Of a stretch of DNA of 64,000 nucleotides, positions 3,899-63,817 are shown piece by piece (the stretch's first letter is position 1; every line of letters starts with the position of its first letter). Under the pieces are notes generated by a model that ran no database searches, had not been told where the DNA came from, and saw only the letters and a list, made by a program, of their open reading frames with translations. A program made the position numbers and the translations under genes. Source of the DNA: Candidatus Saccharimonadota bacterium (GTDB lineage Bacteria; Patescibacteriota; Saccharimonadia; Saccharimonadales; UBA10212); contig JACPKF010000001.1 in assembly GCA_016187125.1 (NCBI GenBank), positions 102,931 to 166,930 on the forward strand, read 5' to 3'.

Positions 3899-4888
3899 TT
3901 AGTCGCTTTCCTTCATTGGTTTAGTGCCGAGACGGGTGTCAATTGAGTCGAACAAAGTACTTAGCTCACCGGCAACTTGGTTATATTGTTCGAGCAAACT
4001 GTTATAGTCAGCAACATCCTTCTTATAACTTCCTACTCTAAAGTTATAGTCGTCTACTTGACTATTAAAACTACTTACAGCTGTATTATATTCATCGATT
4101 TTATTGTCATTACGTAGTGAATCCAAGTGTAGCCGCTCCGATTCGATGCGAGCGGAAAAGCTTTTTAGACTACTCTCCTCATTATCTATCTTCTGCTTAA
4201 GAGTTCCGAGTTGGTTTTCGTAAGAGTGAGCCTTGGCACTGCGGCTGGTAAACTCGCTCTCATATTTTGCGGAGAACGCCGCAATTGCCGCGCGGTCTAT
4301 AAAATACTGCTTGTAGTAATTTTCGAGAGCTGACGGCAAAACGGCAATTTCCGTGCCAAACACAGAGTGCATTTCGTTCTCCACGTCATTTGGCTCGGTC
4401 TTTTTGTAATCGGCGATAGTGTCTTTAATTCGCTGGTCAACTAAACCATGTTTGTAAAAGTCCACTAACAAGGCGTCAATAGTCTGCCTCTGCTTTTTAC
4501 TAAGCCGATCATAGGCGGCGTGTAGCATTTCGTGGGCTGACGTAACTTCTTGAATGCCGCCCAAGCGCATGTCATGGACGTTGTAAATATATATTCCGGC
4601 TTGGTTTGAGTGATAGCAGCCTAAAATAATAGTTTGCTCGCCGAAAGCACACGACGAACGAAATTTTTTAATATCATCCACAAGCTGGGGATGGTTGACG
4701 TAAAAAATGTTCCTGGCTCGATCAGTCATCTTATCAGCCGTTGCCAAAGCCGAGATAGGCGCCGATGGACGATAGTCACGCAGTTGCCACCAATCATAGA
4801 TTGCTTGATGATTAATCCAAGCAACGGCCGGCAACACAATCAGAATTATAGGAATACTAAGTCCAGCGGACTTCTTAAGAAACTTCAT
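3899..4888 (-). CDS. Membrane-anchored hypothetical protein with HExxH motif and C-terminal coiled coil
   Basis: N-terminal TM helix (SAGLSIPIILIVLPAVAW). HEMLH motif with a downstream NEMHS as possible third ligand. Heptad-like C-terminal 120 aa rich in S, E, N and D. No family recognised. Confidence 0.6.
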   Translation of the reverse strand: MKFLKKSAGLSIPIILIVLPAVAWINHQAIYDWWQLRDYRPSAPISALATADKMTDRARNIFYVNHPQLVDDIKKFRSSCAFGEQTIILGCYHSNQAGIYIYNVHDMRLGGIQEVTSAHEMLHAAYDRLSKKQRQTIDALLVDFYKHGLVDQRIKDTIADYKKTEPNDVENEMHSVFGTEIAVLPSALENYYKQYFIDRAAIAAFSAKYESEFTSRSAKAHSYENQLGTLKQKIDNEESSLKSFSARIESERLHLDSLRNDNKIDEYNTAVSSFNSQVDDYNFRVGSYKKDVADYNSLLEQYNQVAGELSTLFDSIDTRLGTKPMKESD

Positions 4889-7671: not shown

Positions 7672-7740
7672 GGTGTTTCAATTTTCAGTCTCCAATTTCC
7701 AATTTCCATTAAATTATCAATGATCCAATAAAAACAATTA
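7672..7740. repeat. AT-rich short-period repeat block related to the gat spacer
   Basis: caattttcagtctccaatttccaatttccattaaattatcaatgatccaat resembles 23620-23680 (cagttttcaattttcaataatttatcattgatcaatt). Confidence 0.5.
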
Positions 7741-9360: not shown

Positions 9361-12057
9361 ATGCCGAAATTGAAAAATCCGACCTGCCGGCCGGACTACT
9401 ACACCTTGGAGTTTATCCTGCTTCGCTTAAAAATGCAAGTTGGTCCGGAATCCCTATCTGATAGAATAGATGGAATGACAAAGCAAGTTAGACGTCTTTA
9501 TAAATATTTCCGGCCCCAAAATTATAAATTAGAGCTCCAGCCTGATGGGGACAAGATGACCTTTTCTGGCCGGGTTGTTATCATCGGTAAGAAAACCGGC
9601 CCTCCGTCTAAACGTCTAACTTTTCATCAAAGTAACTTAAAAATATCTAGCGCCGAAATTACAAAATTTGACAAAAAAGGCTTACGAGAATTTAGTATTT
9701 CGCGAATTAACACTCACCAAAAATTCAACGAACTCCGTCTTCATACCAGCGATCTGCTGTACGGCGGTCATTACAAAATCGAGGTAAGTTTCTCGGGTAA
9801 AATAACCGATCAGATGCACGGCCTGTACCCCTGCTATTTCGCTGGGCGAAAGAAAAAAATTATTGCTACCCAGTTTGAAAGCCACCATGCCCGCGAAGTC
9901 TTTCCATGCATTGATGAACCGCAGGCTAAGGCCACTTTTGATTTATGCCTAACAACTCCCAAAGGTGAAACGGTACTGGCAAATACTCCAATCAAAGAGC
10001 AAAGAACAATGAACAATGAACAAATAACAACGTTCGAAACGACGCCCATTATGAGTTCGTACCTGCTAGCCTTTGTCTATGGCGAGCTTGTCTACAAAGA
10101 AGCCAAGACAAAAAATGGTATCGTCATCCGGTCTTACGCCACTCCCGGCAGCAAAAAATTACTGGATTTCTCAGTTGACATCGGTGCTAGATCTGTCGAT
10201 TTCTTCGAAGACTATTTTTACACACCATATCCCCTGACTAAACTGGATATGGTGGCGCTGCCGGAATTTTCTTCCGGCGCCATGGAAAACTGGGGCCTTA
10301 TAACTTACCGCGAGAGTATTTTGTTGGTAGATCCTAAAAAAACCAGTATTGAATCCAAGCAACTTACAGCTTTGGTCGTAACTCATGAAATAGCCCATAT
10401 GTGGTTCGGCAATTTAGTAACCATGGAGTGGTGGGATGACCTATGGCTCAATGAGAGCTTTGCCAACGTCATGGAATACCGAGCAGTAGATGCGCTGTTC
10501 CCAGAGTGGAGAATTTGGGAGCAGTTTATTAACACCGAAATGCATGCTGCCATGGCGCGCGATAGTCTGCCCAACGTCCAAGCCGTGCGCTGCAAGGTTA
10601 ACCACCCAGACGAAATCGGCCCGTTATTTGATCCGGCCATCGTCTATGCTAAAGGTGGCAACATCTTGAGTATGATGCGTCATATGATAGGCGAAGAAAA
10701 TTTTCGCCAGGGACTCAAAGATTATTTCCAACGCTACGAGTACAGCAATACGGTAGCCGATGATTTATGGAAAAGCTTAGGCGAGGCTTCGGCATTAGAT
10801 GTCAATAACTTTATGCATCAATGGCTCAACTTCCCAGGCTTTCCGGTGGTTGATGTTAGATACACCCCCGGCAAAAAGAGTTTCACGGCTAGTCAAAAAA
10901 GATTATCTATTGGCAAAAGCAGCAATAGCAGGGACGTTTTATGGCCAATACCCCTAGCTACTGATACTTCGACAACTACTCCGCTGCTTAGGAAAAGCTC
11001 AGAGCAGTTCGATTTTGAAACCATTCCCGAAAATCCTATTTTTAACCGCGACGGACACAGTTACTACGTGCCTCACTACCTAGATCCTCAGCACTTTAGC
11101 GTTCTTTTGCATATGGTAGCCAAAAAAAAGTTGAGTCCTATTGACCGTTTGCAACTAGTTCAAAACTACAATCTGATGGAAAGAGCCGGCATTGTAAGCA
11201 CCATCGAAAATTTGGAACTTACCGGCGCCTATAAATCCGAAGATGACGAGGCGGTATGGAGTGCTATCGCTACCACACTTGCCAGTGCCCGGCGTTTAGT
11301 TAAAGGAGACGAGGCAGCTGAAGCCAATTTAAATAATTTTGTGGCTGGATTGGTTAAAGCCCTTGTCAAAAAAGTTGGCTGGAAGGCTAGGGCCGGCGAG
11401 TCGGCGCAGAGTTTGCGCCGGCGCAACTTAATATTAACCATTGGGGCCTCTGCCGAAATGCCCGAAATACTTAAAGAAGCCAAAAAACTCTTCGCTAAGT
11501 TTAACAAGCCCGTTGATCTGCCAGCCGATACCAGAAGCGTAGTTTACTATGTGGCGGCCCGCTTTGGCCCGCCGGCCGATTTTAAAAAACTACTTAAACT
11601 TTATAAATCAATTGATAATGCTGATGAAAAAGACGAAATAGCTTCGGCGCTCTGCTCTACAAGAGATTTAAATAACCTAAAACTACTGCTTAGTATGATA
11701 ACCACTGATGATGTAAGACTGCAAAATGTAATTTCTTGGTTCATCTGGCTGCTGCGAAACTACGAAGCCCGTCCCTTAACCTGGCAATGGCTGATTGACA
11801 ACTGGGCTTGGATTGACAAATATTTTGGTACCGATAAGTATTATGACTTCTTCCCGCGATCGGCCGCTAGTACTTTCTCTACGACTCAGGAATTATCGAT
11901 GTACAAAAAATTCTTTGGACCCAAAATAGTTATTAGAGCTCTGGAACGGACGATTAAACTGGGACTGGAAGAGATGGAAGGCCGTATCGAGTGGCGAGTT
12001 AAAAATGAACAGCCAGTTAAAAAGTGGCTTACCACCTATAAATCTGCCAGAAGTTAA
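9361..12057 (+). CDS. pepN: M1-family aminopeptidase N
   Basis: GAMEN motif (SSGAMENWG) and HEIAHMWFGNLVTMEWWDDLWLNESFA (HExxH-18-E). The real start is more likely the ATG at 9475 (MTKQVRRLYKYF). Confidence 0.92.
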   Translation: MPKLKNPTCRPDYYTLEFILLRLKMQVGPESLSDRIDGMTKQVRRLYKYFRPQNYKLELQPDGDKMTFSGRVVIIGKKTGPPSKRLTFHQSNLKISSAEITKFDKKGLREFSISRINTHQKFNELRLHTSDLLYGGHYKIEVSFSGKITDQMHGLYPCYFAGRKKKIIATQFESHHAREVFPCIDEPQAKATFDLCLTTPKGETVLANTPIKEQRTMNNEQITTFETTPIMSSYLLAFVYGELVYKEAKTKNGIVIRSYATPGSKKLLDFSVDIGARSVDFFEDYFYTPYPLTKLDMVALPEFSSGAMENWGLITYRESILLVDPKKTSIESKQLTALVVTHEIAHMWFGNLVTMEWWDDLWLNESFANVMEYRAVDALFPEWRIWEQFINTEMHAAMARDSLPNVQAVRCKVNHPDEIGPLFDPAIVYAKGGNILSMMRHMIGEENFRQGLKDYFQRYEYSNTVADDLWKSLGEASALDVNNFMHQWLNFPGFPVVDVRYTPGKKSFTASQKRLSIGKSSNSRDVLWPIPLATDTSTTTPLLRKSSEQFDFETIPENPIFNRDGHSYYVPHYLDPQHFSVLLHMVAKKKLSPIDRLQLVQNYNLMERAGIVSTIENLELTGAYKSEDDEAVWSAIATTLASARRLVKGDEAAEANLNNFVAGLVKALVKKVGWKARAGESAQSLRRRNLILTIGASAEMPEILKEAKKLFAKFNKPVDLPADTRSVVYYVAARFGPPADFKKLLKLYKSIDNADEKDEIASALCSTRDLNNLKLLLSMITTDDVRLQNVISWFIWLLRNYEARPLTWQWLIDNWAWIDKYFGTDKYYDFFPRSAASTFSTTQELSMYKKFFGPKIVIRALERTIKLGLEEMEGRIEWRVKNEQPVKKWLTTYKSARS

Positions 12058-13225: not shown

Positions 13226-13365
13226 ACAAATTTAGTTTATCCAGCCTTCGTAGCCGTTGCAAATCGGAACAAATACCTACCGAGTCAGTTTGTTGATAGT
13301 CACTACGCAGGGACTACCGACTAGTTACTTCGGTGAAGTAGGCCTAAATTTGTAGTCGCTAGTTG

Positions 13366-13947
13366 CTAGTCGTCAGCTTTTTTATCGGTTTCTATTTTTG
13401 TCTCTTTTTGCTCAGCGTGTTCCGCTTCAGCTTTGGCTTGGTGTTTAGCTAACGCCGCTTCGGCTTTAGCTTCTTCTTTAGCTCTTTCTTGAGCCTCTTT
13501 AGTGGCCAGCTCGTCATGCTTAGCCAGAGCTTCTTCGTGAATTTTAGCCTCTTCGGCTTCAGCTGCTTCGTCTTGGATCTTATTCACCGCTTCTTTATCA
13601 AAGTCCAGACCAGCCATACGCGTACTTTTGCCGGTTAGACCTCGAATATAAGTTAAATAATTACGTCGAACTTTGCTGCGTTTTATAATTTCGATCTTAA
13701 GAATATTTGGCGAATGAATTAGGTAAGTTTTTTCAACGCCTACACCGCTGGCAATCCGACGAACGCTAAAGCTAGCCGTTAAGCTGTTTTTCCTACTAGT
13801 CCGAATTACAAGACCTTCAAATAACTGAATTCTTTCCTTGCCGCCCTCACGGATTTTTTGATGCACGCGGACGCTATCGCCGCTCTTTAGATCAACGACA
13901 GCTTTCTTCTTATATTTCTCCTCGACTCGTTGAATAACACTAGTCAT
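13366..13947 (-). CDS. rplS: 50S ribosomal protein L19 with about 80-aa Glu/Ala/Lys-rich C-terminal extension
   Basis: The L19 core (KSGDSVRVHQKIREGGKERIQLFEGLVI ... YIRGLTGKSTR) ends near residue 112. Residues 113-193 are a low-complexity EAK tail. Confidence 0.92.
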   Translation of the reverse strand: MTSVIQRVEEKYKKKAVVDLKSGDSVRVHQKIREGGKERIQLFEGLVIRTSRKNSLTASFSVRRIASGVGVEKTYLIHSPNILKIEIIKRSKVRRNYLTYIRGLTGKSTRMAGLDFDKEAVNKIQDEAAEAEEAKIHEEALAKHDELATKEAQERAKEEAKAEAALAKHQAKAEAEHAEQKETKIETDKKADD

Positions 13948-23603: not shown

Positions 23604-23741
23604 ACACGCCTCCAATTAACAATTTACAGTTTTCAATTTTCAATAATTTATCATTGATCAATTTACAATTTTTCGAACAATGGATAATGGAAAATGGAAA
23701 ATTAATGGTAAATGGTAAATGGTAAATGGTAAATGACTCCT
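23604..23741. repeat. AT-rich heptamer-periodic imperfect hairpin spacer inside the gat operon
   Basis: (aatggta/aatggaa) repeats, e.g. aatggataatggaaaatggaaaattaatggtaaatggtaaatggtaaatggtaaatg, face a partly complementary arm cagttttcaattttcaataatttatcattg. Confidence 0.7.
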
Positions 23742-24152
23742 TCATAGGGCTCCTAAATCCTTAAGCCCTTGCCTAATTCCGGCCAGAGCGTCCTTGGCCT
23801 CGTTTTTCTTGAGCCTGATACTGGGCTCATGCACCAAACGATTGCGCAGCTTATGGGCGTACCAAACAGCGTCATTGTTAGTCAGAGTTCGTTGAGCGGC
23901 TACTAAACGCTCACCCATAGCTCTGCCTTTGTATTTTTGTTTTTTTAGAGCCTCATCCAGTAACTTATCGGCGTCAATTACAGCCAGAATCATCCCGTCG
24001 TAGCCAGTTCTAACTCTAGTCAAAAGCTCTAACCACCGATTTTCAAAATATTTCTTATTTAGACTTCGTGGTTTTTTGCGGTTCAGACGTATCAGAACTG
24101 CCAGCACTATAACGCCCATGACGATAGCGCCAACCAAAAATAAAATGGTCAT
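23742..24152 (-). CDS. Membrane-anchored hypothetical protein with RNxxxH (HEPN-type) motif
   Basis: N-terminal TM helix (ILFLVGAIVMGVIVLAVLI), then an all-helical 100-aa domain containing AHKLRNRLVHE. Start overlaps the gatA stop (TAATG). Confidence 0.45.
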   Translation of the reverse strand: MTILFLVGAIVMGVIVLAVLIRLNRKKPRSLNKKYFENRWLELLTRVRTGYDGMILAVIDADKLLDEALKKQKYKGRAMGERLVAAQRTLTNNDAVWYAHKLRNRLVHEPSIRLKKNEAKDALAGIRQGLKDLGAL

Positions 24153-25576
24153 TAGTTTAATTCCTCAAAGGCTTTGGCAATCTCCAGAAGCTGCTTGTCA
24201 GCTCGCTGAGGAGCAATGATTTGCAGCCCGACCGGCAAGCCCTGACTTTGGCCTGCGGGAATACTGATTGCCGGATTGCCAGATACATTGGCTGCTACTA
24301 GTAATATGTCCGACAAGTACATTTGCAGAGGGTTGCCCGTTTTGGCGCCGATTTTAAAAGCCACCGTCGGCGCGGTCGGACCTAGCAGAAAATCATAAAG
24401 TTGAAAAGCTTTGGCAAACTCATTAATAATTTTGGTTCGGACCTTTTGGGCTTTTTTGTAATAGGCGTCGTAGTAACCGCTGGAAAGCACGTGAGTACCT
24501 ATCATGATACGTCGTTTAGCCTCAGTACCAAAGCCTTGCTGGCGACTCAAAAAATAACTGTCTTCCAGATTTTTGGTTTCCCTAGCCGTGTGGCCATAGC
24601 GCTGACCATCATAGCGCGCCAAGTTGCTGCTTACCTCCGCCGGGCAAACGATGTAATAGACAGCTAGCGCCAAAGACAGGCTAGGTAAGCTGACTTCGCT
24701 GATATTGGCCCCAGCCTTTTCCAATTTTTTAATAGCTTGATCTATTACTGTTCGGACGCCAGGCTCCAAGCCTTCGCCCATATATTCCTTGATAACACCA
24801 ATTTTGGCTTTTCGGATTTCGGATTTCGGATTTCGGATTTCGTATCCGTTAGAGTCTTTTTCGATGGTTGTGCTATCCATGGCATCTTTACCGGACATTA
24901 CATCCATCACAAGTGCTGCATCGGCTATATTCCGTGTCAGCGGTCCAACAACATCAGTGCTGGAGGCCATAGCCACAATACCGCTGCGACTAATTAGCCC
25001 GTAGGTTGGTTTATAGCCAACGACACCGCAAAAACTGGCTGGCAGGCGAACCGATCCTCCGGTATCCGTACCTAGCGCAAAGGGAACAATGTCAAGGGCT
25101 ACAGCTGCTGCCGAACCGCCAGAACTGCCACCCGGCACCCTGGTTTTATCATGTGGATTTTTGGTGGTAAAAAAGTCGCTGTTCTCGGTACTACTGCCAT
25201 GCGCCCAAGCATCAAGATTGGCTTTAGCGACGCAAATTGCGCCCTCTAACTCAAGTTTTTCTATGGCCGTTGCTTGATAAGGCGCTTCAAATTCTTTGAG
25301 CATATTTGAAGCGGCCGTTGTGCGGCCGCCAAATGTCAAAAAATTGTCTTTAGCAATGAACGGCACGCCAGCTAGACGACCGACCCTTTCGCCTTGTTTA
25401 ATCCTTCCATCTATTTCCTCAGCCCTTTTAAGAGCACGTTCCATAGGAACCGAAATAATTGCCGCAAAATCTTTATGCTTCTCTACTTCCTGCAGCGCCT
25501 GCTTTACATTACCCTCAGCTGATGTTTGGCCTGATTGCACACTGGCCGCAATTTCATCAATACTTGGCCAACTCAC
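24152..25576 (-). CDS. gatA: Glutamyl-tRNA(Gln) amidotransferase subunit A
   Basis: Amidase signature GGSSGGSAAAVA and catalytic Ser/Lys context (FIAKDNF, GTDTGGSVRLPASFCG). Confidence 0.96.
   Translation of the reverse strand: MSWPSIDEIAASVQSGQTSAEGNVKQALQEVEKHKDFAAIISVPMERALKRAEEIDGRIKQGERVGRLAGVPFIAKDNFLTFGGRTTAASNMLKEFEAPYQATAIEKLELEGAICVAKANLDAWAHGSSTENSDFFTTKNPHDKTRVPGGSSGGSAAAVALDIVPFALGTDTGGSVRLPASFCGVVGYKPTYGLISRSGIVAMASSTDVVGPLTRNIADAALVMDVMSGKDAMDSTTIEKDSNGYEIRNPKSEIRKAKIGVIKEYMGEGLEPGVRTVIDQAIKKLEKAGANISEVSLPSLSLALAVYYIVCPAEVSSNLARYDGQRYGHTARETKNLEDSYFLSRQQGFGTEAKRRIMIGTHVLSSGYYDAYYKKAQKVRTKIINEFAKAFQLYDFLLGPTAPTVAFKIGAKTGNPLQMYLSDILLVAANVSGNPAISIPAGQSQGLPVGLQIIAPQRADKQLLEIAKAFEELN
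24813..24840. repeat. Tandem heptanucleotide repeat (CGGATTT x4) inside gatA
   Basis: Four perfect copies plus a degenerate fifth (cgtatcc). Encodes EIRNPKSEIRKAK in a variable loop just before the conserved KIGVIKEY. Confidence 0.85.
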
Positions 25577-33477: not shown

Positions 33478-34458
33478 TTAGTGTTTGTGGTTGGTGTGGT
33501 CGGTTAATAATTTTTGGGCAGCTTTGGCAATCGATTCAGCGTCCAGGCCAAAATGTTTAAGTAGTTCTTCCGGCTGACCAGATTCGCCAAACCGGTCTCG
33601 CATACCTATACGCAACATCGGGGTAGGGAGCTGCTCACCTAAAAGCTCGGCAATTGCTCCGCCAAGTCCACCGTTAATTTGGGCTTCCTCGGCCGTTACT
33701 ACATGACGGGTCCGCCCTACACTTTCTAAAATAGTACTATTGTCCAGCGGTTTTAAGGTTGGTACATGAAGTACCTCAGCTTCAATTTTATCTTTAGCCA
33801 GCATATCAGCGGCGGCTAGAGCTTGGTAAGTCATAGTGCCGGTGGCGATGATTGTCACGTCAGTCCCCGGTCGGAAAATATAAGCCTTACCGATCTCAAA
33901 TGGTGTCTGCTCGGTAGTAATAATCGGCGTTGCCTCACGAGCCAAACGCATGTAATTGGGCCTCTTGTCACTAGCCATGGCTATGGTTGCCTTAGCCGCT
34001 TCCAGGCTATCGCAGGGCGCCAGAACCACCATGTTAGGTAAAGCTCTCATTAAAGCCAGGTCCTCCAGCATCTGGTGGGTAGCGCCGTCTGGCCCAACGC
34101 TAACACCGGCATGCGAGCCAATGATTTTTACCGGCCGGTCATTGATGCAAATTGTGGTGCGGATTTGTTCCCAGTTGCGCCCCGGGCTAAAAGCGGCGTA
34201 ACTGCTGACGAAGGGAATTTTGCCCATGGCCGCCAGGCCGGCGCCCATCGTCACTAAGTTTTGTTCGGCAACGCCGACCTCTATAAAACGCTCCGGAAAT
34301 TCCTGGGCGAACAAATGCATCTGGGTTGATTCAGTTAAGTCGGCGCAGGCCGCTACTACATTTTCATCTCGTTTGCCGGCTTCTAACAGACCGCGGCCAA
34401 AACCTTTGCGGATCGGCTCCAGCGCCAGCGGTGGTTTAGCCAAAAAGAGCTCAGCCAT
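33478..34458 (-). CDS. tkt: Transketolase, C-terminal (pyrimidine-binding) subunit
   Basis: FIEVGVAEQNLV, GPDGATHQ, C-terminal domain. GGAG SD upstream of the ATG at 34458. Confidence 0.93.
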   Translation of the reverse strand: MAELFLAKPPLALEPIRKGFGRGLLEAGKRDENVVAACADLTESTQMHLFAQEFPERFIEVGVAEQNLVTMGAGLAAMGKIPFVSSYAAFSPGRNWEQIRTTICINDRPVKIIGSHAGVSVGPDGATHQMLEDLALMRALPNMVVLAPCDSLEAAKATIAMASDKRPNYMRLAREATPIITTEQTPFEIGKAYIFRPGTDVTIIATGTMTYQALAAADMLAKDKIEAEVLHVPTLKPLDNSTILESVGRTRHVVTAEEAQINGGLGGAIAELLGEQLPTPMLRIGMRDRFGESGQPEELLKHFGLDAESIAKAAQKLLTDHTNHKH

Positions 34459-34554
34459 CTACGGTCTCCGCTGGCTCAGTAAAATGTAAAAAGTAAAATG
34501 TAAAATGGCTTTTGTACTGCTTGTTGCTTATTGCTTTTTGCTTATTGCCTACCA
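34459..34554. repeat. Short-period low-complexity spacer between the split transketolase genes
   Basis: gtaaaatgtaaaaagtaaaatgtaaaatgg followed by tgcttgttgcttattgctttttgcttattgcc. The 15-mer cttattgctttttgc recurs at about 58835 in the ABC-transporter spacer. Confidence 0.65.
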
Positions 34555-35412
34555 TCATTGGTGTTCGCTCCGGATCTTGCCTTGAAGAGTGCGCAGCTCG
34601 TGCAAAGCTTTTTTGGCTTCATCGTGATTGGGCGGTTTACCATGCCAGTGAAAATCATACTCCATAAAATCGACACCCTTGCCCGGTATGGTATGGGCTA
34701 GAATAACCGTTGGTTTTTCGACGATGGCTTTGGCCATAGCAGCAGCATCAATCACCGCTGCTATGTCGTTGCCGTCAATTTCCAGGACGTGCCAGCCAAA
34801 AGCCTCCCATTTATCACGTAAGTTTTCCAGCGGCATGACGCTTTCGGTGGGCCCATCTATCTGAATATTGTTTCGGTCAATTATGGCTATTAAGTTATTT
34901 AGCCGATACTTGCTGGCTAACATGGCCGCTTCCCAGCTGTTGCCTTCGTCTAACTCGCCATCGCTCATGGCCGCATAAACCCAGCGATGACTTGCCCCAT
35001 CCATCCTGAGAGCCAGTGCCATACCGCAGGCTTGGCTAAGACCACTGCCCAGCGGTCCGCTAGTTGTCTCCAGCCCGGGCAACCTTAGCCGTTCTGGGTG
35101 TCCTTGTAACCTGGAGCCTAGACGGCGCAGAGTCATTAACTCTTTCTTGGGAAAGTAGCCGGCGTGAGCCATAACCGCATATCTAACCGGTACGCAGTGG
35201 CCGTTGGATTGCACCAAAATATCGCGCTCCGGCCAGTCAGGGTTTTTGGAATCGTGCTTCAGAATCTGAAAATAAAGCGCCGTATATATATCGGCCAGAC
35301 CAAGTGGCCCAGCGGAGTGCCCACTACCGGCCTGTTCCAGCATTTTAACTATGTCTATGCGAATATCGTTCGCTTTTTGCTGTAACTCCTCAATCGTTAA
35401 ATCAGTACTCAT
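34555..35412 (-). CDS. tkt: Transketolase, N-terminal (TPP-binding) subunit
   Basis: GSGHSAGPLGLADIYTALYF and SDGELDEGNSWEA. The ATG at 35412 is preceded by AAGGAG (MSTDLTIEEL), so it is preferred over 35460. Confidence 0.93.
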   Translation of the reverse strand: MSTDLTIEELQQKANDIRIDIVKMLEQAGSGHSAGPLGLADIYTALYFQILKHDSKNPDWPERDILVQSNGHCVPVRYAVMAHAGYFPKKELMTLRRLGSRLQGHPERLRLPGLETTSGPLGSGLSQACGMALALRMDGASHRWVYAAMSDGELDEGNSWEAAMLASKYRLNNLIAIIDRNNIQIDGPTESVMPLENLRDKWEAFGWHVLEIDGNDIAAVIDAAAMAKAIVEKPTVILAHTIPGKGVDFMEYDFHWHGKPPNHDEAKKALHELRTLQGKIRSEHQ

Positions 35413-43228: not shown

Positions 43229-45757
43229 TCATACTCTTTCCGCCTTAAATTTTACTTTGGCAGCGGCCGCTACCTTATCAAGTAGCGTGTTAACTTCGGC
43301 GGTAGTTAAGGTCCTATCTGGATGAGCGATGACTACGTGCCAGGTTGTTTGTTTGAGCTTTTTATCACCCGGCTTTTGGTAAATATCCAGAGTTCGCAGC
43401 CAGTGTGTATAACCATGTCCCTTAGAAAGATCGCCAAGAGACTTTAGTATAAAATCCGTCAGTTGGCTGTAGCCAAGATTGATACTTGTCCGCAAACATA
43501 AGTCTTGCTCCACGCTTGGGAAGCGGTTCAGTGAATAGTATGTTGGTGGTTGAGTTTGCATCAACAAAGCATTTATATCGATCTCGGCTTGCGCCGTGAA
43601 GCTAGGCAATTTAAGTATTTGTTTCAGAACTTGAGTCGGTTCGCCGACAAGGCCAATAACTTCATCTTTATGGTAGATGATGGCGCTGCGTTTAGGTTCA
43701 TAAGCTTGGGCCGTCACCTTCCATTGTTTATCTAATTTACTGTCTATAGGTTCATAACGAATTTTGTAGATTCCGATCCCATGTAATAGATTCTCTAGCT
43801 GTTTCTTGGCCGCAAAATATGGCGCTCCTTCTTCTTGGTTCGAATAGTTCTTGGTTGCGACCAAAGCCAGTCTATCTAACTCCTTTGGCAGTTTTTCTTC
43901 GTCGAGAACCCCCTTTATGTGGGTCCGGCCAAGTTCAAAAAGCACAAATTTATCAAAACCTTCCTTGACGTTGGTATGAATTTTTTCCAGCAGGCTCGGT
44001 GCCAGACTCAGACGGTAATATTGTAAGTCCGGGCTCAGCGCATTTCTAATATGGTAAGCGTCCTTGGTGTTTTGGCCGGCTTTTTGGATTAGTGAACTAT
44101 CAACAAAACTATAGGTCAGGACCTCGTTGGCTCCAGCCGAAGACAGTATTTGTCTAATTTTATTTTTAAAAACTAGGCTTTGATTTAGTTTTGCCGGGCT
44201 ATGATCCCGAGTTGGCAGCTTTAGTGGCAGATGATCATAGCCGTAGAGTCGGCCGATTTCTTCGACTATATCTTCGGGAATTACAATGTCTGTTCGCCAA
44301 AATGGTGCGATGATTCGCAGAGAGTCATCACTGCCTATTTCAACTTTGAATTCGACATTTTCTAATAGTTGTTTAGTTTGAGTAGCTGAAAGATTGAGTC
44401 CAAGTCGATCATTGATAAAGCCTAGTTTTGTTTTCACCTGAGATGGTGGAGCCAATTTGCTTTTGAGGTCGTAAACACTGCGGGCCGGCAGACCACCGCT
44501 TTCGTGAATCACAAAATCTATTGCCCTGGCCAACACCCGATCGTTCTGCCATGGCGATTGGTTTTTAGTAAAGCGCGTGGCAGCATCTGTAAATAAGCCG
44601 TGGGTCATAGCTGTTTTACGCGTCGCATTCATGTCAAAATTACCGACTTCCAAAATGATATTTTTGGTATTTTCATCGACTTCCGTATCGGCCCCGCCCA
44701 TAACACCACCAAGCCCAAGAACTAGTCTGTCAGTAGCGATAACTACTTCTTGGCCGCCCAGAGTAACTTCTTTGCCGCCTAAGATTTTAAGCTTTTCGCC
44801 CCTTCGAGCCATCCGGACTGTAATCTGGGCTTTGCTAGTAGCGCTCAGAGCTTTTACTTTATCGTAATCATAGGCATGCAGCGGCTGGGCAGTCTCCAGC
44901 ATTAAATAGTTGGTGATATCAACAATGTTGTTGATGGGACGCACAGCAACGCGCGCTAGAGCGGCTTGGATACCCAAGGACGAAGGACCAACTTTGACAT
45001 TCTTGACTATCTGCATCATAAAGCGTGGTACTAACATTGGTACTTGGTTTTTTACACTCAACAGTTGGTTATCTGTTTTATGTGTGCTGATTGTTTTATC
45101 ACCTAAATACCAATTCGGGGAGCGAAAAACCATGCCCTGGATGCCCGCCAGTTCGCGGGCAATGCCAAGCATACCGAAGCAGTCCGGGCGGTGGGTGAAC
45201 ATCTTGTTTTCGATGTCGATGATGTAATCATCAAGCCCGTAGACTTCGGCGAAAGGTTGGCCCGGTTTGGCCGGTTGGTCAATTACCAAAATGCCGGTGT
45301 GATCGTCACCGAGACTCAGTTCTTTCAAACTGGCGATCATACCGTTACTGACTTTGCCACGAATTTCTCTGGCCTCCAGCACCATCGGGTCTTTATCGAT
45401 CGTGACTGGAACTGTCTGACCGGGCGGGATCCAAGCTACCATTTGGCCAGCTTTGACATTCGGAGCTCCACAGACTACCTGTACCAAACCCTTACTGTCG
45501 TGCCTAACTTTTTTTACTACACCACCGTCGTCAATCATACAGACACTTAACTTGTCGGCATTGGGGTGTTTTTCACAACTCACAACCTTAGCCACGACAA
45601 CGCCTCGATATTTTTTTCCGACATCAACAACTTCTTCAACCGCGCCCAACTGGGAGCCAATTTTTTCAACTAAAGCATCAATGCCTTTTGGCATCGGATC
45701 TGCCGAACATTGGTATTTTTTATTTATTTCACGAATCCAGTTAACCGAGACCTTCAT
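43229..45757 (-). CDS. pheT: Phenylalanine--tRNA ligase beta subunit
   Basis: tRNA-binding OB domain (HPNADKLSVC), B3/4 and B5 domains, FDX-ACB C-terminal domain. 842 aa. Confidence 0.95.
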   Translation of the reverse strand: MKVSVNWIREINKKYQCSADPMPKGIDALVEKIGSQLGAVEEVVDVGKKYRGVVVAKVVSCEKHPNADKLSVCMIDDGGVVKKVRHDSKGLVQVVCGAPNVKAGQMVAWIPPGQTVPVTIDKDPMVLEAREIRGKVSNGMIASLKELSLGDDHTGILVIDQPAKPGQPFAEVYGLDDYIIDIENKMFTHRPDCFGMLGIARELAGIQGMVFRSPNWYLGDKTISTHKTDNQLLSVKNQVPMLVPRFMMQIVKNVKVGPSSLGIQAALARVAVRPINNIVDITNYLMLETAQPLHAYDYDKVKALSATSKAQITVRMARRGEKLKILGGKEVTLGGQEVVIATDRLVLGLGGVMGGADTEVDENTKNIILEVGNFDMNATRKTAMTHGLFTDAATRFTKNQSPWQNDRVLARAIDFVIHESGGLPARSVYDLKSKLAPPSQVKTKLGFINDRLGLNLSATQTKQLLENVEFKVEIGSDDSLRIIAPFWRTDIVIPEDIVEEIGRLYGYDHLPLKLPTRDHSPAKLNQSLVFKNKIRQILSSAGANEVLTYSFVDSSLIQKAGQNTKDAYHIRNALSPDLQYYRLSLAPSLLEKIHTNVKEGFDKFVLFELGRTHIKGVLDEEKLPKELDRLALVATKNYSNQEEGAPYFAAKKQLENLLHGIGIYKIRYEPIDSKLDKQWKVTAQAYEPKRSAIIYHKDEVIGLVGEPTQVLKQILKLPSFTAQAEIDINALLMQTQPPTYYSLNRFPSVEQDLCLRTSINLGYSQLTDFILKSLGDLSKGHGYTHWLRTLDIYQKPGDKKLKQTTWHVVIAHPDRTLTTAEVNTLLDKVAAAAKVKFKAERV

Positions 45758-46197
45758 TCTTTGGTCTCCGTATCTCGTATCTGGTATAAGGTATTAGGTA
45801 TATTGTTTTTTGTTTTAGAAGATTTGATCAGTCCATTTATCAGCTTGTTCGTACGTTCAGAGAGAATAAACAGAGTTTCTGATTCTTTTTCATCTATATA
45901 TCCGAGGTCTGATGAAATTTTAAGCTGATTTTGTAGTTCTGTGAGCGAGCCTTGAGCCATAAAGTAGAATTGATTTTTGTTCTCTCGTGTTTTTCTTGAG
46001 AAGCCTTCCGCAAGATTTGAAGTAACAGAAACTGAAGATCTCCGCATCTGACTCACTAGATTATACTGTTCATTTTTAGGAAATTGCTTGGTTAGTTTGT
46101 ATACAACCAGTGCAAGCTCATGGCCAACTTGCCAGGCGATTAAATCCATAAAGGATTTTATTTTCTGGTTCTCTATACCTGATACTTTATACGTCAT
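45754..46197 (-). CDS. Four-helix-bundle protein (23S rRNA IVS protein / Avd-like family)
   Basis: IKSFMDLIAWQVGHELALVVYKLTKQFP ... SQMRRSSVSVTSNLAEGFSR ... FYFMAQGSLTELQNQL..DLGYI. Overlaps the pheS end by 11 nt and the pheT start by 4 nt. Confidence 0.85.
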   Translation of the reverse strand: MTYKVSGIENQKIKSFMDLIAWQVGHELALVVYKLTKQFPKNEQYNLVSQMRRSSVSVTSNLAEGFSRKTRENKNQFYFMAQGSLTELQNQLKISSDLGYIDEKESETLFILSERTNKLINGLIKSSKTKNNIPNTLYQIRDTETKE

Positions 46198-47263
46198 ACC
46201 ATATACCTTCTAAACTGAATTGCCTCAAGAACTTTAGGTTGCCGGAGTGAAAGTGTCTAATGTCTTCGATGCCATACTTCATCATTACCAAGCGTTCAAG
46301 TCCGCAACCCCATGCAAACCCGGTGTATACAATTGGGTCAATGCCGGCCAATTTAAGTACGTTCGGATGGATCATTCCCATACCTAACAGTTCTATCCAA
46401 CCGGTGTAACCACAGACATGGCAACCTTTCTTTTGACAGAATGGGCAGCTTAAAGCTAGCTCAAATGAGGGTTCAGTGAAAGGAAAATAGAAGGGCTGGG
46501 TCTTTATTTCAAGGTCTTGCTGGTAATATTCCTGCAAAAAAGTCTTAAAAGTAGCTAGCAGATTGCCTACATGGATGTCTTTATCGACATAGACCCCTTC
46601 AAACTGGTGGAATGTATGCTCGTGTCGAGCATCCAAATCTTCATTTCGAAAGACTCGCCCAGGCAGTAAAATCGCGATGGGCTTACCATTCTCCAGGTTG
46701 ATCTTAAACTCTTTTAGTACTCGGTTCTGCATAGTCGATGTATGAGCCGGTGCAACTAAATCTTCATCGGTTACAAAAGTATCATAATCATCCCGAGCAG
46801 GATGGTCTTTAGGAAAGTTCAGGGAAGTAAACATGTGCCAATCATCATCAAGCTCTCTTGATTCCACGGCTGTGAAGCCCATGCGATAGAAAATATCTAG
46901 TACAGTTGCTAGTTCGCTCATCAATGGATGCTGACTACCCATATCAGCCGTCAGTAATTTGGGTTTTTGTTCTGGGGGTACATTGATGTCAAAGGGCGCC
47001 GTTATATCAATTGAGCTTAAAGCTTTAGGCTTAAAGCTTTGAGCTTGGCGAACGAGCTGCTCAAGCTTACTTTTAAGTTGATTTACTTCCTTCCCAAAAG
47101 CAGCTCGTTCGCCGGCCGGCAGTGTTTTTATGCGGTCGTAAAGCGCTACCAGTTCCGGCGCTCGCAAAATTGCTCGCTTATCTTCGAGTTTTTTAAGCTT
47201 CTCACTTAGAACTTTAGCAGCCGCTTGCACCTCTTTGTCGACATACGCCATAACTGGACACAA
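46187..47263 (-). CDS. pheS: Phenylalanine--tRNA ligase alpha subunit
   Basis: Class II aaRS motifs (HPARD, FRNEDLDARHEHTFHQFEG, GFAWGCGLERL). The likely start is the ATG at 47251 (MAYVDKE). Confidence 0.95.
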   Translation of the reverse strand: MCPVMAYVDKEVQAAAKVLSEKLKKLEDKRAILRAPELVALYDRIKTLPAGERAAFGKEVNQLKSKLEQLVRQAQSFKPKALSSIDITAPFDINVPPEQKPKLLTADMGSQHPLMSELATVLDIFYRMGFTAVESRELDDDWHMFTSLNFPKDHPARDDYDTFVTDEDLVAPAHTSTMQNRVLKEFKINLENGKPIAILLPGRVFRNEDLDARHEHTFHQFEGVYVDKDIHVGNLLATFKTFLQEYYQQDLEIKTQPFYFPFTEPSFELALSCPFCQKKGCHVCGYTGWIELLGMGMIHPNVLKLAGIDPIVYTGFAWGCGLERLVMMKYGIEDIRHFHSGNLKFLRQFSLEGIWYDV

Positions 47264-51342: not shown

Positions 51343-51469
51343 TCTCTAAACACTAAATCTGAAATCCTAAACAAAAATTAAATTACAATTCTCCGAAATC
51401 CAAATTGTCTGTAATTTAAGAATTCGGGCTTGTTTAGAGTTTAGAAATTCGTGCTTAGGAATTGGGCTT
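51343..51469. repeat. Short-period imperfect palindrome between the convergent zur and MFS genes
   Basis: tctctaaacactaaatctgaaatcctaaac ... gtttagagtttagaaattcgtgcttagg, with an inner aattacaa..ttgtctgtaatt pairing. Confidence 0.45.
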
Positions 51470-54234: not shown

Positions 54235-55338
54235 TTAGGGAACAATTTGTTCCCACGGCAGGCCGGCTTTACCAAAATGGCCATAGGTCGCGGTTTGAAG
54301 ATAGATTGGCCGGCGCAAATCTAGCTTGGCAATGATCCCACTAACCGACAGATCTATTAGACTACTTGCAAAGTCGGCAATCGCTTTGTCGCCTTGCTTG
54401 GCTGTGCCGAAGGTATTAATATCCAGCATCACCGGTTTTTTACCGCCGATATAGTAGGCTAGTCCGACTTCGGCTTGCTCGGCCAGTCCATGGGCCACGA
54501 TGTTTTTAGCTACGAAACGAGCCGCGTAAGCGCCACTGCGATCAACTTTAGAGGCGTCTTTTCCGGAAAAGCAGCCGCCGCCCACCCGCGCATAACCGCC
54601 ATAAGTATCAACGGCGATTTTGCGTCCAGTTAAGCCGGCATCGCTGGTTGGTCCGGGCATGTGCCAAACGCCTGTGCCGTTAAGCACCAATTTATCAGGC
54701 GTAATTTGATAACCGAACTCACCCAGGACCGGCGAGACAATTTTTTTGTAAACATCATCTTTAACCTGCGTCAGTTGAACAGACTCATCGTGAGGTACGG
54801 CGATCGTTAAATGCTCAACACTTACCGGTTGGGAATTTTCATAGCCGACCACCACTTGAGCTTTACCATCCGGTCTCAGATAAGGTAGATTGCCACTTTC
54901 ACGGGCTAGGTCAAGGTTACGAGTTAGGCTGTGGCTAAGCATGATTGGTAGGGGCATTAATTGTTTTGTCTGATTGCAGGCGAAACCGAACATCAATCCT
55001 TGATCGCCTGCCCCCTCGGCATCAACCGCTAGAGCAATCTCCGGAGATTGGTCATGAATATAAACGTCAACCGGAGAAGCGTCACTGAAATTCCAAGCTG
55101 GATTGGTGTATCCCAGCCGACGGATTTGTTCACGGGCAATCCCGGGAAAATCCAGTTGAGCGTTGGTCTTAACCTCTCCAGCCAAAATCAGACGGTTGTG
55201 TGTGGCAATCGTCTCCAGCGCCAGACGCGATACAGGGTCTTGTTTTAAGGCCGCGTCCAAAATAGCGTCGCTAATTTGGTCGCAGATTTTATCTGGATGA
55301 CCGGCGCAGACTGATTCTGAGGCAAAGTAATGATTCAT
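54235..55338 (-). CDS. metK: S-adenosylmethionine synthetase
   Basis: SESVCAGHPDKICDQISDAILD, GAGDQGLMFGFA, GGGCFSGKD, GRKIAVDTYGG. Confidence 0.96.
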   Translation of the reverse strand: MNHYFASESVCAGHPDKICDQISDAILDAALKQDPVSRLALETIATHNRLILAGEVKTNAQLDFPGIAREQIRRLGYTNPAWNFSDASPVDVYIHDQSPEIALAVDAEGAGDQGLMFGFACNQTKQLMPLPIMLSHSLTRNLDLARESGNLPYLRPDGKAQVVVGYENSQPVSVEHLTIAVPHDESVQLTQVKDDVYKKIVSPVLGEFGYQITPDKLVLNGTGVWHMPGPTSDAGLTGRKIAVDTYGGYARVGGGCFSGKDASKVDRSGAYAARFVAKNIVAHGLAEQAEVGLAYYIGGKKPVMLDINTFGTAKQGDKAIADFASSLIDLSVSGIIAKLDLRRPIYLQTATYGHFGKAGLPWEQIVP

Positions 55339-55512
55339 AAATATCTTTCCTTCTGGTTGGAGTTAGCACCTTTCGAGTTAGTAGTTGGTAGTTCGCAGTT
55401 GGTAGTTTGGGTTTTTTTATCTACTAACTACAATCTACAACCTACTAAACGGGGTTGCTGAGCGGTTTCAAACGAGCCAATTCTCTCTCCGCTGCTCTTA
55501 ATATTTAATTGT
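55339..55512 (-). promoter_or_regulatory. SAM-I (S-box) class riboswitch in the metK leader, with expanded P3 and minimal P4
   Basis: Minus strand: AAAUAU UAAGAG C AGCGG AGAGAGAAUUGGCUCGUUUGAAA CCGCU CAGCAACC [P3 hairpin, about 85 nt] GAAAGGUGCUAACUCCAACCAGAAGGAAAG AUAUUU AUG. Matches the S-box core (AAGAG, GAGnGA..GGCnC..UGAAACC, GCAACC, GGUGCUAAnUCC, AAAGAU). P1 pairs AAAUAU with AUAUUU and abuts the start codon. Confidence 0.7.
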
Positions 55513-55624
55513 TAAGTCCCATTTAGTATAGCAGTTCTGGACGTGGGGTTTTTTAGAAGCCCAGGGTGCAATTTAATGTTTCACCATTGCCAACAATAGT
55601 TGTTGGCTTAGTGCAATAGAGCTA

Positions 55625-55906
55625 CTAAAAGCTGGCTAAGTCTTGATCAAGTTGAGCGGTGTCGTAATCGCTGTCAAGCACTGTTTGGTCTAGGATTTGT
55701 GCAGCTTTATCAAGATCGCTGGCTGTGCTGAGTGCTGGCGCCAATGGTACGGCCTTGATGGCCGATGCCCCAACAGAAGAACTAACAGCTTCATTTTTTT
55801 GGCCACGTTGGTAAATGTTCCAGCCAGCCAAGACTATTATAGCCAGCACTCCGGCTAAGATAACTACTACAAAAAAAGTGAAGCCTTGCTGGTTAGTCTT
55901 TTTCAT
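55625..55906 (-). CDS. Small membrane-anchored hypothetical protein
   Basis: 93 aa. N-terminal TM helix (FTFFVVVILAGVLAIIVLAGW). 4-nt overlap with the upstream gene. Confidence 0.55.
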   Translation of the reverse strand: MKKTNQQGFTFFVVVILAGVLAIIVLAGWNIYQRGQKNEAVSSSVGASAIKAVPLAPALSTASDLDKAAQILDQTVLDSDYDTAQLDQDLASF

Positions 55907-56637
55907 CTTTGACTTCCTTCTGAAGCAGTGGTGCCTTGAACTGATTTAACTCCGACAATTAAATTTTTGACGGCGCTGCGGTAATCTTTTAGAGCTGAGT
56001 TCATAGTTTTCACCTTAGCTTTAAATTCAGCAGCTACGCCTTTAGGGTTGCTGCCGTCGCACTTGAAGCTAACGCTGCTGGATATAACGGCGTCAACAGC
56101 TGCTTGGGCGACAGTTTTTTGGGCACCAACGGCCGCTACTAGAGCGTCGTAGTTAGTTAAGGTTTTGCCTTTGTTTTTATAGAAAGTTTCGGTGCGCTCG
56201 GCAATTGTGCTGAACAAATCAAGCCGCTCTTGGCCGCGCGTCGCCAGAGTCGACATATTATTGTTGATATGGCTTTCGCGTTCCTGGCAAATTTTGAGCT
56301 TATCATCTTTGAGTTTTTCTTTCTTCTGCTCAAGGTCATTTTTGGCGGCTTCGCGTTTTTTCTCAAGTTCTTGCTTGGCCGCTTCGCGTTTTTTTTCGAC
56401 CTCCTGTTTGGCGGCTTCGCGTTTTGCTTCGGCTTCTTTTTTAGCCGCCTCTTTGCTTGACTCGCTGGTGCTGAAGTTTGAACTATCAGAACTGCTATTT
56501 TCAGCCAGTGCCGGCACAGCCGCTAATATCAAAGAGCCAAAAAGGACAGCAACGGCAGTCTGAAAGGCTAACTTTAGCTTTAGTTTTGACATTGATTTTC
56601 TGTCACTCATTTTAAGCTTATGCTTATTCCAAGTCAA
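55903..56637 (-). CDS. Secreted hypothetical protein with tandem KREAAKQE repeats
   Basis: Signal/TM segment (AVAVLFGSLILAAVPALA). Three 33-bp DNA repeats at 56342-56440 encode E(A/V/L)(E/K)KKREAAK(Q/N)(E/D)(V/L). Helical C-terminal domain with two Cys. Confidence 0.6.
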   Translation of the reverse strand: MTWNKHKLKMSDRKSMSKLKLKLAFQTAVAVLFGSLILAAVPALAENSSSDSSNFSTSESSKEAAKKEAEAKREAAKQEVEKKREAAKQELEKKREAAKNDLEQKKEKLKDDKLKICQERESHINNNMSTLATRGQERLDLFSTIAERTETFYKNKGKTLTNYDALVAAVGAQKTVAQAAVDAVISSSVSFKCDGSNPKGVAAEFKAKVKTMNSALKDYRSAVKNLIVGVKSVQGTTASEGSQR

Positions 56638-58761: not shown

Positions 58762-58785
58762 CAGGCGGCCTCCGGCCGCAACAAT

Positions 58786-58888
58786 AAACAATCAGCAGAA
58801 AACAATAAACAATTGAGGCTAAAATACTTATTGCTTTTTGCCTGTCCGACGTAGCCTTGGCGAAGGCGGGCTTTTTGCTTTTTGCTCA
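58786..58888. repeat. Short-period low-complexity spacer between the ABC ATPase and permease genes
   Basis: caataaacaatcagcagaaaacaataaacaatt ... cttattgctttttgcc ... ctttttgctttttgc. Shares a 15-mer with the tkt spacer. Confidence 0.6.
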
Positions 58889-61562: not shown

Positions 61563-61644
61563 GCAGGCCAATGTGTTGTAGGGATAGTCTAGCGACTAGC
61601 GACAGATCGCCCGCCGTTCGTATGGCTATAAGTGGGAACATGCA

Positions 61645-63649: not shown

Positions 63650-63817
63650 AATGACTACTTCATTCCCCTTCGCCGTTGACTATTCACCATTCACAGCACA
63701 TGAGCTGTTCACCATTCACCATTCACCATTCACATTTAATCCATGGTTAATGGCTAATGGAAAATGTACGGTAAATGGTAAATGGCTAATGGAAAATGGC
63801 TCCGGAGGAGCAATCTA
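63650..63817. repeat. Heptamer-periodic imperfect hairpin spacer between atpH and atpA
   Basis: ttcaccattcaccattcaccattcaca faces atggttaatggctaatggaaaatg...ggtaaatggtaaatggctaatggaaaatgg. Shares aatggaaaatgg and ggtaaatggtaaatgg with the gat spacer. Confidence 0.7.

Follow-up and report, generated by a model that had tools for sequence, protein, structure and literature searches.

The SAM-I riboswitch (Rfam family RF00162) is built from four paired helices (P1-P4) arranged around a four-way junction, with a P2 of the kink-turn (K-turn) type, a pseudoknot between the P2 loop and the joining segment J3/4, a P3 base of GCAACC/GGUGC, a GAAAGAU element in J4/1 and a position ahead of metK. All of these features are shared by the leader of the metK gene in a 64-kb stretch of a Candidatus Saccharimonadota genome (assembly GCA_016187125.1, contig JACPKF010000001.1, positions 102,931 to 166,930 of the forward strand), which we refer to as the window and by whose numbering all positions are given. 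The leader departs from the SAM-I consensus in its distal P3, which consists of 73 nt of heptamers rather than a few base pairs and a loop of 5 to 7 nt, and in its P4, which is reduced to 2-3 bp and is accompanied by no separate expression platform. In our reading, which we hold to be probable, the element is a SAM-I riboswitch belonging to a compact Patescibacteria type whose distal P3 has been expanded by heptamer slippage. Genome-typical heptamers within a structured RNA likewise characterize the repetitive sequences of short tandem repeats (STRR) that Vioque is said to have described in 1997 (Nucleic Acids Res 25:3471, as cited in PMC2858038) inside the RNase P RNA of heterocyst-forming cyanobacteria, reportedly within a variable helix; that parallel concerns a different RNA in a different phylum. 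More generally, the part of PMC4679880 that summarizes Mrazek et al. (2007) describes heptamers as the commonest among prokaryotic long simple-sequence repeats, with polymerase slippage as the proposed source. The window shares with those repeats, and with the TAACTGA repeats of Beggiatoaceae treated in the same paper, an excess of heptamers that is mostly intergenic and recurs in scattered prokaryotic genomes; however, a single heptamer dominates in Beggiatoaceae, whereas each locus in the window has its own units, many of them forming the opposed arms of hairpins. With respect to mechanism, SAM-II/V, SAM-III, SAM-SAH and some preQ1 riboswitches are listed as examples of direct occlusion, and SAM-I is not among them (PMC10907184); the studied translational SAM-I riboswitch of Xanthomonas works via a separate multi-hairpin platform (PMC7270179). 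The leader in the window resembles the direct-occlusion riboswitches (SAM-II/V, SAM-III/SMK, SAM-SAH and some preQ1-I/II) in that its ribosome-binding site (RBS) lies within the aptamer, an arrangement defined by the bound ligand itself keeping the 30S subunit away (PMC10907184), but those are pseudoknot or three-way-junction folds, and the mechanism proposed for the window is deduced from its anatomy. Our literature search on riboswitches, or on heptamer hairpins, in Saccharibacteria/Patescibacteria returned nothing specific.

The metK gene is a 367-aa open reading frame (ORF) at 54235..55338 on the minus strand with the three domains of S-adenosylmethionine (SAM, S-AdoMet) synthetase (Pfam PF00438/PF02772/PF02773). 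Its product is 100% identical to P0002, which carries the NCBI name 'methionine adenosyltransferase [Candidatus Saccharibacteria bacterium]', and a MetK similarity search places the window in Patescibacteria/Saccharibacteria. All riboswitch elements lie in the 286-nt spacer 5' of this ORF, also on the minus strand. A cmscan search of 501 nt returned a full-length match to RF00162 (model positions 1-108) with a score of 39.4 bits and an E-value of 1.7e-7, or ~2e-5 when scaled to the whole window, and in the alignment the P3 loop takes up an insertion of 70 nt while the loop of P4 has 4 nt. The first-pass annotation of this DNA, made from the letters alone, had taken the leader for a SAM-I aptamer on the strength of its S-box elements; those elements all lie where it had placed them on the minus strand, and the covariance-model match is indeed significant once the insertion is allowed. 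SAM-I is the best-scoring member of clan CL00012 at this site, ahead of the SAM-IV and SAM-I/IV models (RF00634, RF01725), and the anatomy agrees with this ranking. The RF00162 alignment contains the four helices around a four-way junction with a small P4 between J3/4 and P1, and the aptamer stands directly 5' of metK. SAM-IV and SAM-I/IV lack a P4 in that place and have an extra hairpin or pseudoknot 3' of P1, whereas here the coding sequence begins at the end of P1. The ligand-pocket and junction consensus (AUnAAGAG, GCAACC...GGUGC and GAAAGAU) is all present and aligned at high posterior probability, and the conserved AAGAG, GAGAGA...UGAA, GCAACC, GGUGCUAA and GAAAGAUA are all found in the leader. 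A covariance model of our own (R1, from 10 compact leaders of the kind described below, run with filters off) also finds the site, at 32.9 bits and an E-value of 2e-6. R1 was rejected as a guide to the anatomy, since its 3' half aligned into the insert rather than opening a 70-nt gap, and the anatomy was therefore taken from the RF00162 alignment. The parts of the aptamer, all on the minus strand, are as follows, with the source of each in brackets.

55338..55507, minus strand: SAM-I aptamer, whole RF00162 match (cmscan)
55500..55507, minus strand: 5' strand of P1, UAAAUAUU (RF00162 alignment and fold)
between P1 and P2, minus strand: J1/2, AAGAG (alignment)
55460..55495, minus strand: P2 (RF00162 alignment)
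within P2, minus strand: P2a, G,AGCGG/CCGCU,C with a bulged C, then a GA-rich K-turn region (alignment)
within P2, minus strand: P2b, GAG/CUC with loop AAUUGG (alignment)
55477..55480, minus strand: 5' partner of the pseudoknot, UUGG in the P2 loop (covariation)
55450..55459, minus strand: conserved base of P3, 5' strand, AGCAACCCCG (alignment)
55365..55375, minus strand: conserved base of P3, 3' strand, CGAAAGGUGCU (alignment)
between P3 and P4, minus strand: J3/4, AACUCCAA (sequence)
55357..55360, minus strand: 3' partner of the pseudoknot, CCAA in J3/4 (covariation)
55346..55361, minus strand: minimal P4, consisting of a U-A closing pair, CC (55356-55355), loop AGAA and GG (55350-55349) (alignment)
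55345..55352, minus strand: sequence like a Shine-Dalgarno (SD) site, AAGGAAAG (sequence)
between P4 and P1, minus strand: J4/1, AAAG (sequence)
55338..55345, minus strand: 3' strand of P1, GAUAUUUA, whose final A is the A of AUG (alignment, fold and sequence)
55338-55336, minus strand: metK start codon AUG (ORF)

The bulged C of P2a is also found in relatives, and the base of P3 pairs as AGCA-A-CC / GG-UGCU followed by CG/CG. The minimum free energy fold of the leader recovers P1, P2 and the long P3 at -44.5 kcal/mol (z -4.3). The pairing of the P2 loop with J3/4, which had been proposed from the two tetranucleotides UUGG and CCAA, was put to a covariation test across distinct SAM-I leaders: the NNGG of the P2 loop and the CCNN of J3/4 are complementary over 4 bp in 55 of 83, against a mean of 15.5 and a maximum of 28 in 500 permutations. 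The main covarying types are UUGG/CCAA, which is the commonest, UAGG/CCUA, CUGG/CCAG and CCGG/CCG(U/G). Judging by this covariation, we take the UUGG/CCAA pseudoknot to be real.

What sets this aptamer apart is the outer part of P3, in which two 29-nt arms of four heptamers each face one another across a loop.

55377..55449, minus strand: heptamer-periodic hairpin of 73 nt forming the distal P3, absent from the relative L087 (fold and Tandem Repeats Finder, TRF)
55421..55449, minus strand: 5' arm of the hairpin, U-UUAGUAG GUUGUAG AUUGUAG UUAGUAG (TRF)
55406..55420, minus strand: loop of the hairpin, AUAAAAAAACCCAAA (fold)
55377..55405, minus strand: 3' arm of the hairpin, CUACCAA CUGCGAA CUACCAA CUACUAA-C (TRF)

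TRF calls the arms as period-7 arrays of 4.6 copies (55376-55407) and 3.9 copies (55419-55445). A GUAG/CUAC core is paired in each heptamer unit, with a mismatch or bulge about every 7 nt, and the hairpin has ~27 predicted base pairs in interrupted helices. Folded in isolation it reaches -25.0 kcal/mol (z -5.8), and none of 200 shuffles was equally stable. The P3 stem had been described as replaced by a hairpin of about 85 nt; the distal part of that description stands, in the form of the 73-nt heptamer hairpin, while the conserved P3 base is retained. The span from GCAAC to GGUGC measures 83 nt in the window, where 76 of the 77 other measurable leaders have 11-36 nt. The tip of the stem is thus about five times as long as usual. 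According to RNAfold, which models neither the ligand nor the pseudoknot, the probability of P1 and the accessibility of the SD-like site are unchanged by the insert, and pairing at the base of P3 is slightly higher with it than without it (0.63 vs 0.52, and 0.49 vs 0.40).

The one exception among the 77 leaders (L098:7034-7221, minus strand, contig Ga0172367_10013805; comparison loci are cited by our L numbers) is a SAM-I match with a 101-nt P3. Its score of 39.3 bits is sub-threshold like that of the window, but its insert is a long AT-rich hairpin that is non-repetitive, with no period-7 array called. The P4 of this aptamer has 3 bp (CCC-GUAA-GGG), and a search of the 250 nt beyond the aptamer shows no start of a metK ORF. 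The distal part of P3 thus tolerates large inserts in nature. SAM-I aptamers precede metK in L002, L005, L008, L085, L088 and L089 and, with lower scores, in L087, L009, L014 and L010, and the more distant relatives L001, L003, L004 and L012 have SAM-I/IV aptamers on metK. The most informative of these is L087, whose MetK is 72% identical. It has in common with the window the P2 sequence GAGAAUUGGCUC, the J3/4 sequence CUAACUCCA and a GGAAAGAUAUUU that runs into the start codon, and its P4 is also minimal (CC-AAAAA-GG), with a P3 span of a normal 19 nt. As L087 shares the design of the window with a normal P3, the long P3 is a lineage-specific addition. The protein collection searched contains no relative with a MetK identity between 88% and 100%.

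The leader is not an assembly artefact, since it is identical in other assemblies. Four other assemblies, built from separate sequencing runs, match the window at 100% identity over stretches of up to 7.1 kb, and three of the four contain the whole leader; the fourth (L084) has only its final 14 nt. As these assemblies represent one strain, they are uninformative on selection. We looked for variation in repeat number in the four assemblies with identical MetK and saw none, all of them being this one strain.

The small P4 and the joining of aptamer to start codon turned out to be features of a wider group. In most Saccharibacteria relatives a full P4 is followed by a separate hairpin, CCUUUCU...AGAAAGGAU, then a run of U and the AUG. 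In these relatives with a separate platform, AGAAAGGAU serves as the SD, and the 5' arm of the hairpin, AUAUCCUUUC, is complementary to GAAAGAUAU in the aptamer; this is the classical arrangement of a terminator (or sequestor) plus anti-terminator. When metagenome contigs were scanned for an aptamer 3' half that has a small P4, 110 loci were retrieved, and at least 16 of them (L091, L100, L109, L116, L120-L122, L138, L150, L151, L157, L160, L170, L191, L192 and L196) are compact, with the sequence ...UCCGUCC-(A)AGAAA-GGAAAGAU-AUG and a P4 of CC-(A)AGAAA-GG. The metK start codon of these loci comes straight after GGAAAGAU, within the 3' strand of P1, and their MetK ORFs are of ~320-357 aa, two of them being incomplete in the retrieved locus. 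Nine of the compact loci were scanned, and their SAM-I scores range over 55-73 bits. The window shares with the compact leaders the CC-loop-GG form of P4, GGAAAGAU running into the metK start, the 5' motif UUAACAAYUU and an extended -10-like box. It differs from them in its P3 span (83 nt vs 12-24 nt) and in the gap between GGAAAGAU and the start codon, which is 4 nt in the window, 3 nt in L087 and 0 nt in most compact loci.

In this arrangement the SD-like core AAGGA is made up of the P4 loop and the 3' strand of P4, in the window extending across J4/1, and it stands 5 nt before the start codon in the class, with a wider spacing of 8 nt in L087 and 9 nt in the window. A consensus scan found no terminator-like site in the leader of the window, and the anatomy places the RBS inside the aptamer, with AAGGA in P4 and P1 ending at the A of the AUG. 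Translational control had been suggested in the first-pass annotation, which also noted the reduced P4 (CC-AGAA-GG), from a 3' strand of P1 reaching the AUG and from an SD-like sequence in the P4/P1 region. All of these are present, and the suggestion gains weight from the recurrence of the same design, with its tiny P4, GGAAAGAU into the metK start and no terminator, in L087 and the at least 16 compact loci. The compact leaders form a platform-less SAM-I class that likely acts by direct translational occlusion. Under such a mechanism, SAM binding would lock P1, P4 and the pseudoknot, and the locked fold would bury both AAGGA and the start codon and so reduce metK translation, making the element an OFF switch. 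Without SAM, a P1 made entirely of A-U and G-U pairs would breathe or open and allow the 30S ribosomal subunit to load. The compact form could have arisen by deletion between the similar sequences GAAAGAUAU, at J4/1-P1, and GAAAGGAUAU, at the SD, which the sequences make plausible.

Several observations weigh against a working SAM-I switch in the window. The score of 39.4 bits is 5 bits short of the gathering cut-off that Rfam sets for RF00162 (44.4 bits). There are several unpaired bases where the conserved base of P3 meets the insert, P4 has just two G-C pairs, and AAGGA is a weak match to the canonical anti-SD. The RNAfold probability of P1 falls from 0.94 to 0.13 depending on the amount of coding sequence included, a sensitivity that would be expected of a marginal helix needing its ligand. 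The metK gene of L086, whose MetK is 79% identical, has no leader (L086:1-320) and begins 4 nt past the stop codon of the preceding gene, which encodes an ABC-2 membrane protein (ABC transporter). The riboswitch was either lost from this locus or never present, so that loss of the switch is tolerated in the lineage. Finally, a single strain offers neither population nor covariation support for selection on the long P3 or on the aptamer.

Some of these points could mean that the riboswitch is decaying, in other words that heptamer expansion and P4 reduction have disabled the aptamer, that metK is constitutive and that the leader is a relic. In addition to the sub-gathering score, the leaderless L086 and the sampling of a single strain, this explanation can draw upon L085, which at 88% MetK identity has a different type of leader with a full P4 and a terminator, as well as a P3 extension of ~30 nt that is non-heptameric and homologous to that of L088. 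Leader architecture in the clade is very labile. However, the conserved core positions and the 4-bp pseudoknot are all intact, and the minimal P4 can hardly be a sign of damage when it recurs in at least 16 loci, of which the nine scanned score well as SAM-I. The insert sits exactly at the tip of the helix, which it prolongs rather than breaks. The low score is itself accounted for by the comparison of L087, whose compact and closely similar leader without an insert reaches 44.1 bits, with L098, which shows an equal deficit. The deficit is therefore attributable to indels and the insertion penalty and not to damage to the core. We accordingly regard decay as unlikely, and continue with the reading of an expanded SAM-I riboswitch.

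The hairpin in P3 is one of many in the window. TRF found 20 period-7 arrays, against a mean of 1.0 and a maximum of 3 in 30 dinucleotide shuffles (an excess of ~20-fold), with no similar excess for periods 6 and 8 (3 arrays each). The rate of 3.1 period-7 arrays per 10 kb compares with 0.56 per 10 kb across 80 other genomes (646 kb in all), and no period-7 array was found in ~23 kb of the closest relatives (L085-L089). Imperfect hairpins with opposed arms of about four units each occupy the spacers at 23613-23735, 34479-34548, 45769-45802, 51344-51440, 58780-58886 and 63708-63801, and further period-7 sites lie at 7676-7708, 13353-13372, 46174-46209, 47011-47046 and 61589-61603. The units are specific to each locus (CAATTTA/AATGGTA, GTAAAAT/TGCTTAT, TCTAAAC/GTTTAGA, AACAATA/GCTTTTT and TTCACCA/TAAATGG). 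A perfect (TCCGAAA)x4.7 array at 24810-24842 lies in frame inside the minus-strand ORF 24152-25576, an Amidase/GatA-like gene (Pfam PF01425, E-value 1.6e-139), where it encodes ..YEIRNPKSEIRKAK.., and other heptamer arrays lie inside ORFs at 9993-10030 and 47011-47046. The array in the GatA-like ORF indicates that the expansion process also hits tolerant protein sites. Taken together, these observations point to a genome-wide slippage process rather than a mobile element. The earlier impression that the P3 hairpin and others in the window are alike in kind is borne out. The related proposal, that a genome-specific hairpin module had expanded within a functional riboswitch, holds as to genome specificity, but the word module should not suggest mobility, as the units vary by locus and the P3 units have no second copy in the window.

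As observations in their own right, two metagenome contigs are also rich in heptamers. One (L185:836-1845) has six period-7 arrays of different units in 3.7 kb, among them an inverted pair just 5' of its SAM-I leader and two that follow the terminator and precede the metK start, and the other (L128) has five period-7 arrays in 12 kb.

The best fit to these data is that the tip of P3 grew in situ as 7-nt (or 14-nt) units slipped during replication. Such an origin is favored by the tandem 7-nt, partly 14-nt, periodicity, and by the units being more alike within an arm than they are to the complement of the other arm (counting units from the 5' end of each arm, with U for the 5' and V for the 3' arm, V1 = V3 = CUACCAA and U2 ~ U3). 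It is further favored by the absence of a second copy in the window and of terminal repeats, and by the activity of the same process elsewhere in the genome. Whole-unit changes of the slippage type and template switching within quasi-palindromes are established mutational mechanisms, and the latter could have copied into one arm an expansion of the other. Because repeat arms would still pair after the gain or loss of whole units, the hairpin could become longer with no fitness valley to cross. In solved SAM-I structures, P3 has its distal end directed away from the ligand pocket, and the insert would be harmless to the switch if, as expected, this solvent-exposed end carries neither ligand nor tertiary contacts.

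The hairpin might instead be a functional add-on, selected as a protein or RNase III site, as a stability element or as a tuner that works through copy number in the manner of phase variation. Similar hairpins do occupy intra-operon spacers (23613-23735, 34479-34548 and 58780-58886), ~27 predicted base pairs would in principle be enough for a double-strand-specific RNase, and the heptamers upstream of start codons in Beggiatoaceae have been proposed as regulator-binding sites (PMC4679880). Yet the hairpins of the window have no sequence in common, and their transcribed strand is not consistently the one predicted to fold more stably, those at 34455-34560 and 45750-45830 folding better in antisense, which argues for a mutational origin at the DNA level and against selection on the RNA. 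Moreover, some arrays are plain direct repeats or lie within an ORF, relatives have the same switch without the hairpin, and the one strain sampled shows no copy-number variation. A selected function for the hairpin is therefore quite improbable in our judgment.

Still less credit is due to the transposition into P3 of a palindromic element resembling miniature inverted-repeat transposable elements (MITE) or repetitive extragenic palindromic (REP) sequences. The hairpin is a discrete palindromic block where relatives carry a short loop, as such an insertion would leave, but the 64-kb window has no second copy of the P3 units, only a weak similarity with 3 mismatches at 13352 and 42923. Neither a target-site duplication nor conserved termini are visible, the other heptamer hairpins are built of unrelated units, and the tandem periodicity fits slippage, not transposition. 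A dispersed palindrome of the MITE/REP type was thus rejected for want of a near-identical copy in the window. Lastly, a SAM-I look-alike sensing another metabolite is hardly credible, for although rare SAM-I variants bind spermidine and reject SAM, these differ in the conserved ligand-contact regions and precede polyamine genes of Firmicutes (PMC10853860), whereas here the core is the SAM-I consensus and the gene is metK.

Beyond the reading of an expanded but otherwise ordinary aptamer, one may speculate that in some Patescibacteria a very active heptamer expansion builds inverted-array hairpins in any tolerant site, be it a spacer, a riboswitch helix or a gatA loop, that the repeat number of P3 serves as a heritable and rapidly mutable dial for metK or as a binding or processing site, and, linked to this, that the compact leaders are the first SAM-I direct occluders; we consider this combination rather doubtful. 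The element is, in any case, an instructive SAM-I variant and not a new type of switch. Variation in P3 length is unsurprising for SAM-I, and it is the repeat-driven origin, the invisibility to annotation and the platform-less design that merit attention. A default Rfam scan of the 64-kb window returned no family at its gathering score, tRNA included, and the metK leader escaped because its match is sub-threshold. Threshold-based annotation thus misses riboswitches with big inserts in permissive helices, as exemplified by the window and L098 at ~39 bits. The pair formed by the window and L087 is a natural experiment on the role of peripheral helix length in SAM-I folding and switching, while the heptamers suggest that genome-wide slippage has been reshaping both regulatory RNA and protein in a reduced Patescibacteria genome. 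The platform-less design is the leanest SAM-I unit that we found. Should its proposed mechanism be correct, direct occlusion would extend to SAM-I, and the compact leaders, whose SD lies in P4 and whose start codon falls in P1, would be the first of this family shown to act in that way.

Upstream of the aptamer, the following minus-strand features can be recognized.

55525..55533, minus strand: extended -10-like box, TGCTATACT, a putative leader promoter (read from the sequence)
55507..55515, minus strand: 5' leader motif ahead of P1, UUAACAAUU (invariant alignment columns 1-7)

UUAACAAYUU is invariant or nearly so just 5' of P1 in most of the Patescibacteria metK SAM-I leaders inspected, compact and canonical, the exceptions being a variant in L009 and its absence from L014. 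Relatives too have a TGnTAnAnT box, 8-9 nt upstream of their UUAACAA motif. As UUAACAAYUU starts 8-9 nt past this box, it would lie at the extreme 5' end of the mRNA. A consensus scan of the leader found no -35/-10 (sigma-70) pair, so the putative promoter is called from the conserved extended -10-like box.

An 11-nt complementarity was also seen between UACUAAAUGGG (55521-55531, minus strand) and CCCGUUUAGUA (55443-55453, minus strand), the latter covering the base of P3 and the first heptamer, and this pairing takes over the predicted fold when the upstream bases are included. We set it aside as an anti-P3 element, because UACUAAAUGGG shares bases with the presumed -10 box, and a transcript from that promoter should not include it; the complementarity may be due to chance, or may be relevant to read-through transcripts.

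Elsewhere in the window, a 33-nt tandem repeat of 2.5 copies (56342-56425) lies in the minus-strand ORF 55903-56637 and encodes repeats of the KREAAKQE type. The product of this ORF has 244 aa and no Pfam match, and the same is true of the adjoining 93-aa ORF with respect to Pfam. TATAAT-like boxes stand ~5-12 nt 5' of predicted starts, for example at 4888, 21074, 28038, 43140, 47263 and 47317, the start codons having been taken from a crude longest-ORF map, and their placement suggests that some mRNAs in the window are leaderless or have very short leaders.

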